DNA of 64,000 nucleotides, taken from the sequence record OQ708376.1, one strand, 5' to 3'. Position 1 is the stretch's first letter, and each line of letters begins with the position of its first letter. Of this stretch, positions 31,658 through 42,027 are shown piece by piece. A program made the position numbers and the translations under genes. The notes under the pieces were generated by a model that was not told where the DNA came from, did not search any database, and saw only the letters and a program-made list of their open reading frames with translations. The DNA comes from Escherichia phage vB_EcoM_CRJP21.

Positions 31658-31996
31658 ATGGAACAATATTTTGAATTAATAAACAAAGTATCATTTTATG
31701 TAGTATCTTTGGTTTGGGTGTATTATATGTTTTGCTATATTATTGCATTCTTCCGATACACTACTTTATATGAACGTATCTACTATGATGCCCCAATTTC
31801 ATTCTTGATGTTTTGTGCCTGTACGTGGGGAATATTAGAAGTACTGATATGTGGGTATAGTACTGATGAATTAAATCTGGTATCGGTGTTGACTGGGTTT
31901 TCATTTGTTGTTATGATAGCTGCCGTTCCAGTATGGTTGTTCTTTGGACTAGTTCATCGCATTGATATATGGCGTTCTAATATCCCTGAAAAGTAA
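31658..31996 (+). CDS. small 3-TM membrane protein, R.NIPE family
   Basis: C-terminal WRSNIPEK; paralog family. Confidence 0.6.
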   Translation: MEQYFELINKVSFYVVSLVWVYYMFCYIIAFFRYTTLYERIYYDAPISFLMFCACTWGILEVLICGYSTDELNLVSVLTGFSFVVMIAAVPVWLFFGLVHRIDIWRSNIPEK

Positions 31997-31999
31997 GGA

Positions 32000-32347
32000 T
32001 TGGTAATGATTTATTACACTAACATGTTTGCCTATGCTGTTGCTTGCATTTACATTGTTTACTTCTTATTCGGTGGAGTACTGTGCTTCTTTAAGTACAA
32101 AACGTTGTTCAACCGAATGTACCCAAATCATCCAATTGTAGTTGTACTTTTGATTCTTTCAGTTTCTCAAATAATCGTTGAAACTACAATGGGTATCAGT
32201 AGTGTACATTATAGTTTTGGTACTATAGTAATTATTACTATGCTTATTGCATACATTTTAGTACTTGGATATGGTATCTTTGGTAATATTGGTATGAAAA
32301 TGTATCATCGAATTAAAACATTACGTGATAATCTACCGGAGCGTTGA
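32000..32347 (+). CDS. small 3-TM membrane protein, R.NIPE family
   Basis: C-terminal LRDNLPER. Confidence 0.6.
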   Translation: MVMIYYTNMFAYAVACIYIVYFLFGGVLCFFKYKTLFNRMYPNHPIVVVLLILSVSQIIVETTMGISSVHYSFGTIVIITMLIAYILVLGYGIFGNIGMKMYHRIKTLRDNLPER

Positions 32348-32348
32348 T

Positions 32349-32693
32349 ATGTATAATTTGAACCTAATCTCATATATTATAACAACACTGTTTACATTCT
32401 ATGCCTTTGTTGGTATAATCCTACTGTACTTTAAATTTTATAAAGTGTTTAACCGTTTCTATCCTTCAATGGAGAATGAGTTTTTCTTTGTGTTGTACGT
32501 AGGTTACACATTAATGGCTACATGTTTCACTGTAGCCGATGGTGTCATCGGCATTAAAACTGATTCCCCAAATGGTAGTACGCTGGTTGCATTTATTCTT
32601 ACTGGATTCCTTGCAACTTATATTGCCTTCATTACAACATGGTCAGTGGTTGAATTTCTCTTGCGACTACGAAAGAATATGCCGAATCGATAG
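32349..32693 (+). CDS. small 3-TM membrane protein, R.NIPE family
   Basis: trimmed from track ORF 32325; C-terminal RKNMPNR. Confidence 0.6.
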   Translation: MYNLNLISYIITTLFTFYAFVGIILLYFKFYKVFNRFYPSMENEFFFVLYVGYTLMATCFTVADGVIGIKTDSPNGSTLVAFILTGFLATYIAFITTWSVVEFLLRLRKNMPNR

Positions 32694-32702
32694 GAGACAT
32701 AT

Positions 32703-32957
32703 ATGTTTGCGTTGCGTAATAAAAACACTAAAGAATTATTATGTATTGATACCGTATGGGATTGTGCGGGGTCAACTACAGTTCTTGAAGAAGGAACTGG
32801 ATATTGCGTGTTTGTTGTACATGATAGGAATGAACTCGAATTATTACTTGCTGAGTTCAATGCTGGTGGTAATCCTAACAGTACTGAATACCCTGAGATT
32901 ATCAATCCAGCACCACCAGGCTCTTATGAAATTCTACAACTGTGGGAGTTGAAGTAA
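32703..32957 (+). CDS. hypothetical protein (84 aa)
   Basis: ORF. Confidence 0.55.
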   Translation: MFALRNKNTKELLCIDTVWDCAGSTTVLEEGTGYCVFVVHDRNELELLLAEFNAGGNPNSTEYPEIINPAPPGSYEILQLWELK

Positions 32958-33337
32958 TGCGTCAAATGCACAAAGTAACCGAGCTAAACAAGCGTCTGGT
33001 TAAACAATCAATGTTCGAGGATAAAGAGTCTTATTATAACTTTAAACGTGCAGTAGAGGCTGCTATCCACATTCAGAAGCTTAAAGAACGTGGTTGTATT
33101 ATTCTGGAAAATGGTTCGGAAGTTGTAACGGATGACTTTAGTGTAGCGTTTGATGTTTCACCTGACGGGACGCTATCAATGCCCCGCTTAGGAACTGGAA
33201 ACATGACTGTTTGGGTTGGCTTCACTATGGGGAATGTACCTGGTACTGTGTACGTAGATGATGCAGAATTGAAAGACAGTTTCAAAAACTTATCTTATCT
33301 TGAACCACAATACGCACATGAAATGAATTTATTTTGA
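32957..33337 (+). CDS. hypothetical protein
   Basis: TAATG overlap; trimmed from track ORF 32942. Confidence 0.55.
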   Translation: MRQMHKVTELNKRLVKQSMFEDKESYYNFKRAVEAAIHIQKLKERGCIILENGSEVVTDDFSVAFDVSPDGTLSMPRLGTGNMTVWVGFTMGNVPGTVYVDDAELKDSFKNLSYLEPQYAHEMNLF

Positions 33338-33338
33338 G

Positions 33339-39926: not shown

Positions 39927-40273
39927 TGTTTGAAGCTTATCTTGAGTTTTTAAGGAGTAGTCCAGTTGCACATTCACTTGCAGGGATTATTCTAACAACT
40001 TATGTATCATTTTGGTTAGTTATGTTTCTAGGATGGTATTTTAAACGACAATTCTATAAACGTAATGGTGAAGATTTTATGAATTCTGCCATTAATCAAT
40101 CGTTGTTTGCATCAACATTGATTGCATGTATTGTAGCAACACTCACAGGAAAGGTACTACCAGCTTTTTCCGCAGTTTACGGCACACTTGGGATGATATG
40201 TTTAACTTTTATATTGACCATTAAAATTTGTTGTGTTATGATTGAACTTCGAAATAAGATACCGGAGGAATGA
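39926..40273 (+). CDS. small 3-TM membrane protein, R.NIPE family
   Basis: C-terminal RNKIPEE. Confidence 0.6.
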   Translation: MFEAYLEFLRSSPVAHSLAGIILTTYVSFWLVMFLGWYFKRQFYKRNGEDFMNSAINQSLFASTLIACIVATLTGKVLPAFSAVYGTLGMICLTFILTIKICCVMIELRNKIPEE

Positions 40274-40608
40274 TGGAGTACTTTATTGATTTACTGCCGT
40301 GGTATATGAAAGTTAGTACTTTGTACTATATTATTAGTGCTGGGTTCTACTTTCTGATGTGGTTCTTCAAACGACCAATTTCAGTATTCATCTCTGATAA
40401 CATGCTGCAATTAAAATTACACGCATGGTTTGGTATGGCGATGATTATGCCAATTATTCACTACTCAATGATTAGTAGAGGTTTCCGTTCTAATGGTGAA
40501 CCAATTGTATTAGTATTCTATTGGGGTTCAACTATTGCATATGTAAGTTTGTTGTTGTTCCCAGTCGTTCATAAGTTACGTGCTAAAGTTCCTGATGCGA
40601 GGTACTAA
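40270..40608 (+). CDS. small 3-TM membrane protein, R.NIPE family
   Basis: C-terminal AKVPDARY. Confidence 0.6.
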   Translation: MMEYFIDLLPWYMKVSTLYYIISAGFYFLMWFFKRPISVFISDNMLQLKLHAWFGMAMIMPIIHYSMISRGFRSNGEPIVLVFYWGSTIAYVSLLLFPVVHKLRAKVPDARY

Positions 40609-40922
40609 TGGATATAGTAACATTGATTTACACGTTGTATTCATTCTATTTCATTATGTGTTGGGTTGGATTTTTATTTGTACTCAAGATGTTTGATTAT
40701 GTTGAAAAACAGATAAAAGAATTTTGTATTCCTTTTATCGGTTCAACCATTATTAGTGTTTCTTGTGTGTATTTTTTGGTTTTTGATCCACCAGATAACA
40801 CTGCAATGATTGACTTGATGTTACTACCAACAACTGTTACTTTTTTATGTAGTCTGATGCCGCCGATTAGCCGTGGACTAACAGAATTTAGACGCAATCA
40901 AAAGCGTAAACGAGGGATGTAA
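40608..40922 (+). CDS. small 3-TM membrane protein, R.NIPE family (divergent C-terminus)
   Basis: paralog architecture. Confidence 0.55.
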   Translation: MDIVTLIYTLYSFYFIMCWVGFLFVLKMFDYVEKQIKEFCIPFIGSTIISVSCVYFLVFDPPDNTAMIDLMLLPTTVTFLCSLMPPISRGLTEFRRNQKRKRGM

Positions 40923-41290
40923 TGGAAATTGCTCTTATTATCTTAACTGCTATGCTGTTTATTAGTACTGTGGTTATAATTGGTAAATTCTTTTGTGTAT
41001 CATTTTTAGAAACGGTATACGATGAAATTGCTGATGATTATGAATTACAAGCCGGATTTTTCATTACGTATTGGCTTAGTTTATTTTGTCTAGTCATTGC
41101 TTGGATTTTACATATCTTTAAATGGGGTATGGTAGACGGTGATCCTATTATGGCAATTATTGTTCTAGTGTTTGGTATCCTTGGTGGTGCAGTGCATAAT
41201 CTAATGGTTATCTGGCAAACTGTTCAATATGTTTTGGTTCCCTATTTCGAAAAGATGCACAGTACAATTAAAAAACGTAAACGAGGTTAG
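40922..41290 (+). CDS. small 3-TM membrane protein, R.NIPE family (divergent C-terminus)
   Basis: paralog architecture. Confidence 0.55.
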   Translation: MEIALIILTAMLFISTVVIIGKFFCVSFLETVYDEIADDYELQAGFFITYWLSLFCLVIAWILHIFKWGMVDGDPIMAIIVLVFGILGGAVHNLMVIWQTVQYVLVPYFEKMHSTIKKRKRG

Positions 41291-41291
41291 T

Positions 41292-41654
41292 ATGAACGGG
41301 ATAGAATTATCTTTCGTTGGTCAATTACTAGTAATGGCGTATACATTTATCTTCTCACTGAATGCATTCGTGTGCATTGGGAAGTACTTCCATAAGCGAC
41401 CATTATCAAATATATATGATGTAATCCAAAAGAGATATAGTCCAGCATATACTGTGTTGGGTACAGTATTCAATTTTGGTTTTATTGTATTAATAATTGG
41501 ACTGTTCACATCCTCTTTGAATACAATAACCTTTGGTCTTATGATATGTTCATTGGTATTAGCCGTAATTATATGTTGTTTAGTACTGCACCTTGTGGTA
41601 CTATTGTATATAAAGATCTCTGAAATCCACCAACGTTTGGGTATGAGGAAATAA
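41292..41654 (+). CDS. small 3-TM membrane protein, R.NIPE family (divergent C-terminus)
   Basis: trimmed from track ORF 41229. Confidence 0.55.
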   Translation: MNGIELSFVGQLLVMAYTFIFSLNAFVCIGKYFHKRPLSNIYDVIQKRYSPAYTVLGTVFNFGFIVLIIGLFTSSLNTITFGLMICSLVLAVIICCLVLHLVVLLYIKISEIHQRLGMRK

Positions 41655-41655
41655 T

Positions 41656-42027
41656 ATGAGTTACCGTGAGATATTTTCCATTATTTCAATTATTATGTTC
41701 AGTACTGGAACACTGGTATGGTTATTATACTTCTTCTGTATTAATCCAGTGTATAATATGTTATGTAATATTAAATCAAGTGCCGGATATATCACTTTTA
41801 TGGTCTTTATGGGATATTATTGTCTAAGCATTTTAGGTGTTGTTTTGGTTGTTATATTTGATGTGGGACCAAATAGTGATGGTATGGAAATACATGAATT
41901 AATAACCATGTTTGGATGTATGATACCAACAGCACTACTGTTTGTAGCTACTGGTAGTGGATTGATAAAATTATATAATTATTTAAAATCCATTCATAAT
42001 TCCATTCATAATAAGCGTATGTCATAA
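41656..42027 (+). CDS. small 3-TM membrane protein, R.NIPE family (divergent C-terminus)
   Basis: paralog architecture. Confidence 0.55.
   Translation: MSYREIFSIISIIMFSTGTLVWLLYFFCINPVYNMLCNIKSSAGYITFMVFMGYYCLSILGVVLVVIFDVGPNSDGMEIHELITMFGCMIPTALLFVATGSGLIKLYNYLKSIHNSIHNKRMS

Follow-up and report, generated by a model that had tools for sequence, protein, structure and literature searches.

What are the eleven small membrane proteins that are encoded in two tandem clusters of a jumbo coliphage genome, do they belong together, and what might they do in the infected cell? These questions are raised by a stretch of 64,000 nucleotides from Escherichia phage vB_EcoM_CRJP21 (sequence record OQ708376.1), which was analyzed as a whole and is called the window here. 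A preliminary description, made from the sequence alone, had reported three open reading frames (ORFs) at 31658..32693 (cluster 1, genes m1 to m3) and eight at 39247..42027 (cluster 2, genes m4 to m11), encoding proteins of approximately 110 to 120 amino acids (aa) with three transmembrane (TM) helices each. All eleven ORFs were located at these positions on the plus strand, with products of 104 to 123 aa. A megablast search with positions 31000-43000 returned vB_EcoM_G17 and Sharanji at 98% identity and also matched 121Q, PBECO4, and other Asteriusvirus jumbo phages, identifying the window as part of an Asteriusvirus (121Q/PBECO4/G17-like) jumbo coliphage. In the G17 annotation, all genes of both clusters are listed as "hypothetical protein." Rak2/121Q jumbo phages have been proposed for therapy, yet over 80% of their genes lack an assigned function. 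We conclude with high confidence that the eleven genes encode a phage-specific family of inner-membrane proteins of approximately 105 to 125 aa, each a three-helix bundle with an N-out/C-in topology, a conserved scaffold on the cytoplasmic side, and their greatest variability in TM2 and TM3, and that they are carried in accessory cassettes of the early region that are exchanged whole. Their role is far less certain, and our best guess is that they form an early battery of membrane guards.

The relationship among the eleven genes was not evident from simple comparisons. Pairwise BLASTP was significant only inside the m1-m2-m3 group and inside the m4-m5 pair, and PHROGs scatters the window members over at least seven groups without function (19285, 19454, 19046, 27396, 33258, 26405, and 27618). 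Common ancestry was therefore assessed at the profile level. Profiles of the orthologue groups, drawn from G17, ph0011, WPEC3, JNE01, Turkey5, and A4, were compared by hhalign, which linked m1, m2, and m3 to each other with 97 to 98% probability, m4 to m5 with 99.9%, and m6 to m7 with 95%. Links between these groups were found for m3-m6 (88%), m1-m6 (81%), and both m1-m5 and m3-m5 (68%), and m9 was linked to m10 (86%) and m11 (83%). Weak links were given by m1-m11 (22%) and m7-m9 (19%), and every pairwise link of m8 was at or below 8%. The hhalign score of 55 reversed-sequence controls never exceeded 20.9. A hidden Markov model (HMM) was also made from a 52-sequence alignment, leaving out the subfamily of each member in turn, and was run against 243 decoys consisting of all other ORFs of the window plus reversed family sequences. 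All eleven members ranked first, with scores of 14.4 to 43.5 bits compared to no more than 11.7 bits for the decoys; m7 scored lowest, and m8 reached 20.6 bits versus 8.2 for its best decoy. In addition, the protein P0038 ends in LHDKIPEC, an intermediate that links the two tail types described below. A twelfth member was looked for within the 64-kb window, and none was found. Taken together, the profile links and the leave-subfamily-out test bear out the earlier claim that, as judged from their sequences, the eleven genes form one family.

The predicted membrane architecture was likewise upheld. With a Kyte-Doolittle window of 19 residues, three hydrophobic segments were obtained for 10 of the 11 proteins; the hydrophobicity of m7 is weaker (17-residue peaks of 1.46, 1.40, and 1.85), and its three-TM assignment was made by homology. 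The two sequence motifs that had been described fared less evenly. The first, a basic motif after TM1, stood in part, as F(K/R) occurs in 7 of 11 copies, and it is the Phe alone that is invariant. The second, the tail R-x-N-(I/L/M)-P-(E/N), is real but was overstated as a feature of most copies: its strict form is found in three of the eleven and a relaxed form in five, and the tails of the remaining six are basic (for example, KRKRG, RGDF, and GMRK). An alignment of the 52 sequences nevertheless demonstrated conservation beyond mere hydrophobicity and provided a two-part family signature. The first part, [F/Y]-F-[K/C/R], lies where TM1 ends on the cytoplasmic side, and its second Phe is found in all 52 sequences; the second part is an Arg or His within the C-terminal helix (31 Arg and 21 His, 52 of 52), which begins the tail motif (R/H)-x-(K/N)-(I/L)-(P/K).

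Over the same sequences, the mean number of Lys plus Arg residues was 0.5 for the N-terminus, 3.15 for loop 1, 0.52 for loop 2, and 4.58 for the tail, and the positive-inside rule was obeyed for an N-out/C-in orientation in all 52. The predicted topology thus has a periplasmic N-terminus, three TM helices, and a cytoplasmic C-terminus. An AlphaFold2 model of m9, made from the 52-sequence alignment, had a predicted local distance difference test score (pLDDT) of 95 and a predicted template modeling score (pTM) of 0.80, with helices at residues 2-21, 27-38 (interfacial), 40-66, and 76-121 (TM3 extending into the cytoplasm); a model of m1 from a shallower alignment reached a pLDDT of only 72. From the predicted topology and the m9 model, both universal positions would lie at the cytoplasmic face, and predicted periplasmic exposure is limited to a few residues. 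Within orthologue pairs, identity was 0.26 to 0.30 in TM2 and TM3 compared to 0.42 to 0.45 in the N-terminus, TM1, and loop 1. The modeling strongly supports a conserved scaffold that faces the cytoplasm and consists of the Phe at the end of TM1, the short interfacial helix, and Arg/His-x-(K/N)-(I/L) on the TM3 extension. Structure searches returned generic three-helix bundles only. Foldseek with the low-confidence m1 model gave no match under an E value of 3.6 in the PDB and none that was significant among viral models, where the third-ranked entry (E 1.4) was a "putative membrane protein" of phage CBB that is probably a family member itself.

The arrangement of the genes adds a second layer of constraint. 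A Shine-Dalgarno (SD)-like ribosome-binding motif precedes every one of the 11 starts, and inspection of the ribosome-binding sites (RBSs) together with the G17 annotation favored ATG starts, each with such a motif, at 32006 for m2, 32349 for m3, 39588 for m5, and 41292 for m10. At 8 of 10 junctions, the RBS of the next gene is embedded in the last 2 to 4 codons of the upstream gene (32335-32349, 39575-39588, 39912-39926, 40261-40273, 40596-40608, 40909-40922, 41280-41292, and 41642-41656). The C-terminal tail is thus partly a translation signal, and tail residues such as "PE," "RG," and "GD" are doubly constrained; the possibility that the "PE" motif acts as a protein-level signal alone was rejected on these grounds. 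Genes of cluster 2 abut or overlap, with gaps of -4 to +1 and overlapping stop/start sequences of TAATG or ATGA, and the two other junctions of cluster 1 are 9-nucleotide gaps. Such spacing (-4 to +9 overall) suggests translational coupling. Compared to close relatives, the ratio of nonsynonymous to synonymous substitution rates (dN/dS) of the family genes was 0.09 to 0.42, indicating that all members are under purifying selection. That the genes are nonfunctional filler was ruled out by these ratios of 0.1 to 0.4.

To follow the family beyond the window, as the preliminary description had proposed, a profile made from the eleven members and their first hits was used in an exhaustive search of 1.84 billion representative proteins. 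Only 41 matches were obtained, of 56 to 127 aa (all but one of 89 to 127 aa), and nearly all were aligned over most of their length. A word-indexed search of 5.8 billion clusters gave 19 clusters, and tblastn with single members gave 35 records, all from Asteriusvirus; members in related genera were reached only with the family profile. Copy numbers were counted with an iterated profile over the fetched loci. Eight copies after a gene for a NrdC.10-like P-loop ATPase, plus three in the upstream cluster, are present in the window, G17, ph0011, JNE01, and Turkey5; the corresponding numbers are seven and three in WPEC3 and seven and one in A4. After the same ATPase gene, six copies are found in EJP2, eight in RaK2, four in fHe-Yen9-04, four in GAP32 (plus two further genes annotated as three-TM), three in Munch (plus one upstream), and eleven in the metagenome contig L008. 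Xanthomonas phage XaC1, Pseudomonas phage 30-3, and the T4-like phage AR1 have the ATPase and no copies, and no such three-TM proteins were found among the neighbors of nrdC.10 in T4, 30-3, or XaC1. The family has therefore been seen only in Rak2-like jumbo phages of Enterobacterales, in 0 to 12 copies and nearly always after the NrdC.10-like ATPase.

These genes were already in databases as hypothetical or "membrane" proteins. In GAP32, the depositors labeled gp522, 523, 525, 526, 526A, and 527 "membrane protein, 3 transmembrane domains" on the basis of TMHMM and Phobius, and of these gp525, 526, 526A, and 527 are true homologues (iterated profile E values of 5e-13 to 7e-10) that resemble the window proteins in size and in their position after the ATPase. 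The GAP32 and PHROG records carry descriptive labels only, without a function, and searches of the literature on Asteriusvirus, Sharanji, fEgEco12, UE-S1, G17, CBB, and nrdC.10 found no paper that discusses the family or describes the genes as a single family or variable array. What is new here is the definition of the family, with its signature, topology, fold, restriction to Rak2-like phages of Enterobacterales, and cassette behavior, by which eleven separately filed "hypothetical proteins" become one defined family.

Both clusters are bounded by repeated promoter/stem-loop elements. A 35-nucleotide composite element, AAGGGTTGACTTCGGTCAGCCCTTTTTGCTATAAT, occurs in five plus-strand copies in the window, compared to 0 expected (24520-24554, 30608-30642, 35103-35137, 36385-36419, and 38343-38377, with a partial copy near 35685). 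Its hairpin stem holds TTGACT and is followed by the extended -10 sequence TGCTATAAT, and at 30613 and 38348 it conforms to a TTGACT-18-TATAAT promoter whose -10 is extended (TTGACT, TGnTATAAT, and the hairpin are all legible in the sequence). In T4-like phages, PeSLs, which are composite terminator/early-promoter stem-loops, bound and shuffle variable modules (PMC4122927). The window elements have the same features, a hairpin over a sigma-70 promoter, here of predicted activity, repeated between variable modules. As in the hyperplastic regions of T4-like phages, stem-loops flank variable accessory blocks and serve as exchange points: five copies and two variants of the element bound the clusters, and alleles swap exactly there. 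The published description differs in that it concerns T4-like rather than Rak2-like phages and covers the movement of cassettes, not the role of their cargo. The 35-nucleotide element fits the PeSL concept, and we found no report of it for Rak2-like jumbo phages.

The extent of allele exchange was apparent from comparisons with JNE01. The flanking genes (g184, g58, g83tm, g138, denV for endonuclease V, and the ATPase) were 92 to 98% identical between the window and JNE01, with synonymous divergence (dS) of 0 to 0.64, whereas the family genes were 28 to 52% identical, with dS above 1.1 or saturated. When the soluble neighbors g93, g84, and g220 were included with the family genes, identity was 28 to 54%. 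This contrast in both identity and dS argues that the arrays are anciently diverged cassettes in a conserved backbone and not just fast-evolving genes. Even EJP2, which belongs to the same genus, has an almost unrelated array. At the same time, m5, m7, m8, m9, and m11 retain their order and orthology from Asteriusvirus to RaK2, and m7, the most conserved member, is 52 to 67% identical to its counterparts in JNE01 and A4 and scores 59 bits against RaK2. Lineage-specific duplicates were seen for m4/m5 in the window and for other genes in RaK2, JNE01, and L008. The preliminary description had spoken of tandem amplification, which is misleading: m4 and m5 (47% aa identity, with a 130-nucleotide DNA repeat at 75%) are the only pair that retains similarity at the DNA level, and the other paralogues are ancient, with an order kept across genera. 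Recent tandem amplification was ruled out for the same reason.

The breakpoints of these alleles coincide with the promoter/stem-loop elements. The element at 39189-39217 is a recombination junction, conserved while the genes on either side of it swap alleles independently; it is kept in eight of the nine Asteriusvirus loci compared, and A4 has a 219-bp ORF in its place. The core of the terminator that closes the array, CCAGTACT..AGTACTGG, is present in seven of eight Asteriusvirus sequences (six of seven loci plus the window). A4 lacks both of these flanking elements, and its next gene abuts the array. Sequence comparison thus strongly supports accessory cassettes of the PeSL type that are exchanged whole as deeply diverged alleles, and a route for such swapping is offered by the module exchange for which PeSL elements are known (PMC4122927). 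The ATPase itself follows the same rule, as m4 to m11 are 95 to 100% identical to those of G17 while the ATPase is 59% identical, and in JNE01 the ATPase is 96% and the arrays are 30 to 52% identical. By these comparisons, one gene alone, that of the ATPase, has been cleanly exchanged for another allele between two stem-loop elements, and it swaps independently of the array. The ATPase is also 96 to 98% identical to those of ph0011, WPEC3, and JNE01, and the genes on either side of it are 92 to 100% identical to those of G17.

This independence bears directly on one explanation for the arrays, that their products form a hetero-oligomeric inner-membrane complex, such as a membrane machine or an anchoring platform, that works with the co-transcribed ATPase. 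The array follows the ATPase in Asteriusvirus, Alcyoneusvirus, Mimasvirus, Eneladusvirus, Munch, and a metagenomic relative, at a distance of only 0 to 10 nucleotides in RaK2, GAP32, fHe-Yen9-04, EJP2, Munch, and L008; the overlapping or abutting genes with an RBS inside the preceding gene suggest coupled translation, paralogue order is conserved between genera, and the conserved motifs are predicted to lie on the cytoplasmic side, where an ATPase would dock. However, the ATPase occurs in approximately 1,300 T4-like and other phages without such an array, copy number varies from 0 to 12, cluster 1 lies in a different operon 6 kb away, and a separate conserved promoter/stem-loop stands between the ATPase and the array in the eight Asteriusvirus loci mentioned above. 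Together with the independent assortment of ATPase and array alleles, these points make such a complex unlikely. If it did exist, it would provide a first functional handle on the widespread NrdC.10 ATPase of the T4 superfamily.

The sigma-70-type promoters suggest that both clusters are expressed early. The authors of the CBB study regard the homologous stretch of that genome, where RpoD-like promoters are abundant, as an early host-takeover region (PMC5259590). Timing of this kind is difficult to reconcile with a role in lysis, which the preliminary description had offered among its possibilities. Class I holins of the lambda S105 type are proteins of approximately 105 aa with three TM helices, an N-out/C-in orientation, and a basic cytoplasmic tail, and the window proteins are predicted to share this gross architecture of three TM helices, N-out/C-in topology, and charged tail. 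They could then be holin-, antiholin-, or pinholin-like timers for the signal-anchored endolysin of Rak2-like phages; in CBB, the endolysin is predicted to be of the signal-arrest-release type, and no holin is named (PMC5259590). Unlike holins, though, the window proteins come in eleven copies outside any lysis cassette, with early-type promoters and with a kinase, endonuclease V, and the ATPase as neighbors. Neither Pfam nor PHROGs gave a match to a holin (the top hit, phrog_920 with m10 at an E value of 2.3, is meaningless), and the endolysin of 121Q is gp532, far from the clusters at gp207-209 and gp224-232 (PMC5259590). The cluster genes carry no holin label in fEgEco12 or vB_Ec-M-J, even though the fEgEco12 paper reports that a holin is encoded somewhere in its genome. 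Eleven early hole-formers would, moreover, be expected to kill the host prematurely. Lysis timing is thus disfavored, and we regard it as very unlikely.

The same early context would suit host-takeover factors that bind, inhibit, or re-tune ordinary proteins of the host inner membrane, for example transporters, components of division or of the envelope-stress response, or those controlling ion flux, with paralogues possibly matched to variants of a target in different enterobacterial hosts. A host shut-off kinase of the T7 gp0.7 type belongs to these early operons, all phages in which the family has been seen infect Enterobacterales, some paralogues have been conserved over long evolutionary times, and Rak2-like phages have broad, multi-receptor host ranges. 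Conserved host targets would not, on the other hand, predict the 28 to 52% identity level of divergence between phages that infect the same species, nor that some relatives have lost the array entirely, and no partner is known. We consider this explanation improbable as well.

The reading we prefer, with a probability of roughly one in three and hence with low confidence, is that the arrays are an early membrane-guard battery that serves exclusion or counter-defence. Involvement in phage-phage or phage-host conflict at the inner membrane is inferred from the cassette-type evolutionary behavior, and the context of sigma-70-type early promoters, an accessory set of 0 to 12 copies, and deep allelic divergence fits the exclusion or interference with membrane-associated defence that had been suggested earlier. 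The guard proteins would be made by host RNA polymerase immediately upon infection and would shield the inner membrane of the infected cell through the long jumbo-phage cycle. An array would then be a battery of specificity variants on one membrane-embedded binding module, in which the conserved cytoplasmic scaffold would carry the variable TM2-TM3 hairpin; with this hairpin, each paralogue would capture and block its own membrane-acting threat inside the bilayer. One candidate threat is the genome-delivery channel of a superinfecting phage, an exclusion function comparable to that of T4 Imm; another is a pore-forming toxin or abortive-infection effector from the host or a competitor.

Two known systems help to frame this proposal. 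T4 Imm and Sp are small envelope-acting phage proteins, and the setting of the family, a plastic region of a T4-related genome that is predicted to be early from promoter consensus and position, resembles theirs; T4 Spackle is made early from a host-type promoter (PMC7677548). Imm and Sp differ from the family in that Imm, an inner-membrane protein, and Sp are single copy, whereas Rak2-like arrays have 4 to 12 diverged paralogues, and in that Spackle is periplasmic and the window proteins are predicted to be almost wholly membrane embedded. Immunity proteins against pore-forming colicins of the E1/Ia type are inner-membrane proteins of approximately 110 aa with three TM helices. They neutralize the pore-former through helix-helix contacts within the bilayer, are specific, diversify into paralogues, and are often encoded by orphan arrays in bacteria. 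The likeness is a working analogy only, since E1-type immunity proteins have their N-terminus in, the opposite of the window family, and the window genes are phage borne and probably early, have no cognate toxin nearby, and have no sequence similarity to them.

Several observations weigh against a guard battery. The family has no homology to any exclusion, immunity, or anti-defence protein: Pfam and NCBIfam scans of its members gave no match (none to immunity families at E values up to 1), the PHROGs scan at E values up to 10 gave, apart from the m10 holin hit, only weak cross-matches among the family's own groups, with no match to T4 Imm or Sp in Pfam, NCBIfam, or PHROGs, and no member matched PADLOC defence models under an E value of 0.26. 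Known exclusion proteins are single copy. With so little of the protein exposed to the periplasm, any recognition would need to take place within the bilayer or at its cytoplasmic face. The kept order of m5, m7, m8, m9, and m11 and the apparent translational coupling would also fit the subunits of a fixed complex, the rapid change of TM2 and TM3 could reflect weak constraint on hydrophobic helices, and the deep divergence comes from cassette replacement and not from demonstrated positive selection (dN/dS below 1).

A narrower proposal, which we think improbable in this specific form, is that the arrays represent a new class of counter-defence, a swappable library of helix binders in which each paralogue neutralizes a different pore-forming or depolarizing abortive-infection effector in the bilayer. 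Examples would be the TM effectors of the cyclic oligonucleotide-based antiphage signaling system (CBASS) and of retron, Thoeris, and Rex-type systems, and the conserved cytoplasmic scaffold would then serve membrane insertion and stability only. If the arrays are indeed exclusion or anti-defence batteries, they would help to explain the host range and co-infection outcomes of Rak2/121Q jumbo phages and would add a membrane-embedded mechanism to the known phage countermeasures.

Coordinates of the family genes, their neighbors, and the elements that bound them are collected in Table 1.

Table 1. Genes and predicted regulatory elements in and around the two clusters of the window.
Feature	Coordinates	Strand	Description
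Composite terminator/promoter (PeSL-like)	30608..30642	+	AAGGGTTGACTTCGGTCAGCC(T/C)TTTTTG(T/C)TAT(G/A)AT; heads the putative early operon containing cluster 1
T7 gp0.7-like protein kinase	30638..31312	+	First gene of the operon; phrog_15752, E 1e-98
Variant promoter/stem-loop	31309..31337	+	TTGACA-17-TATTCT over hairpin CAGAAC..GTTCTG; directly 5' of the variable block g93-m1-m2-m3-g84
g93	31374..31655	+	Soluble, 93 aa; phrog_37917, function unknown; diverges alongside cluster 1
m1	31658..31996	+	112 aa, three-TM member, PE-type tail; phrog_19285
m2	32006..32347	+	113 aa, PE-type tail; start as in G17 annotation
m3	32349..32693	+	114 aa, PN-type tail
g84	32703..32957	+	Soluble, 84 aa; diverges alongside cluster 1; 34-50% identical to JNE01, Turkey5
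Composite terminator/promoter	38343..38377	+	Heads the operon of the NrdC.10-like ATPase and cluster 2
NrdC.10-like P-loop ATPase	38406..39179	+	phrog_1250, E 6.5e-100; conserved anchor upstream of the array
Array-specific promoter/stem-loop	39189..39217	+	TTGACAGTACTA-N9-TAGTACTATAA; TTGACA-17-TACTAT; precedes m4-m11
m4	39247..39588	+	113 aa, tail RDNFKWGF; phrog_19454
m5	39588..39926	+	112 aa, tail RDKIRGDF; recent paralogue of m4
m6	39926..40273	+	115 aa, PE-type tail; phrog_19046; also phrog_16874 "membrane protein," E 2e-5
m7	40270..40608	+	112 aa, PD-type tail; most conserved member
m8	40608..40922	+	104 aa, basic tail KRKRGM
m9	40922..41290	+	122 aa, basic tail KKRKRG
m10	41292..41654	+	120 aa, tail HQRLGMRK; GAGG ribosome-binding site
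m11	41656..42027	+	123 aa, tail HNKRMS; final array gene; 77.8 bits vs RaK2 member 7
Hairpin terminator	42033..42056		ATCCAGTACT-loop-AGTACTGGAT; closes the array at the strand switch
g220	42069..42731	+	Soluble, 220 aa; phrog_34359, function unknown; diverges alongside cluster 2

The ATPase was assigned to NrdC.10 by a full-length profile match and by the P-loop GKGGVGKT followed by LLLDDVD, both read in its translation. It is approximately 41% identical to T4-like nrdC.10 products and matched 1309 phage records; a sequence search of the PDB gave no match. Just 5' of its operon, an ORF of 549 aa at 36686-38335 resembles HNH/homing endonucleases (phrog_559 and phrog_9084), and the equivalent spot is occupied by a different gene of 372 aa in G17, by an endonuclease of 516 aa in WPEC3, and by a relative of 438 aa in L008, a pattern that suggests a hot spot for mobile endonuclease genes. 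The variable soluble neighbors differ in the extent of their divergence. The g93 product is 53 to 60% identical to those of JNE01, Turkey5, and A4, compared to 92 to 98% for genes further downstream, and the g220 product is 32% identical to those of JNE01 and Turkey5 and 46% identical to that of WPEC3 over 45% of its length. At the 3' side of the array, where the window has the unrelated g220, a gene for a putative DUF1190-type lipoprotein is found in A4 (L003, 12164-12715), GAP32 (L012, 10049-10672), and fHe-Yen9-04 (L015, 10748-11368), adjoining the array directly or past one short ORF.

Within the operon of the gp0.7-like kinase, the product of 34456-34827 (ORF 34411-34827; phrog_4301, function unknown) has the kinase-like motifs AIKIP, DAKPENFG, and KLDYGD by eye and would be a second kinase-like protein of that operon. 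The products of g84 and of 34811-35098 share an N-terminal M(F/Y)AL(R/Y)NK and a C-terminal YEI(L/V)(Q/K)L (BLASTP E value of 0.011) and may be weak paralogues. Two small hydrophobic proteins that do not belong to the family are encoded at 34196-34447 (83 aa) and 35720-35914 (64 aa). The former is 95 to 100% identical in all six Asteriusvirus loci compared, and the latter is 95 to 97% identical in G17 and JNE01 and absent from the other loci; their conservation contrasts sharply with the 28 to 52% identity of the three-TM arrays. Elsewhere in the window, seven tRNA genes (Gly-tcc, Ser-tga, Arg-tct, Ser-gct, Met-cat, Asn-gtt, and Thr-tgt) lie at 141-3808. Directly after the array terminator, from 42712-45141 onward, convergent genes on the minus strand encode repeat-rich products high in Gly, Ser, and Thr, which in related phages are labeled "regulator of chromosome condensation" or "DNA condensation protein," and the cumulative GC skew turns over at approximately 42 kb.

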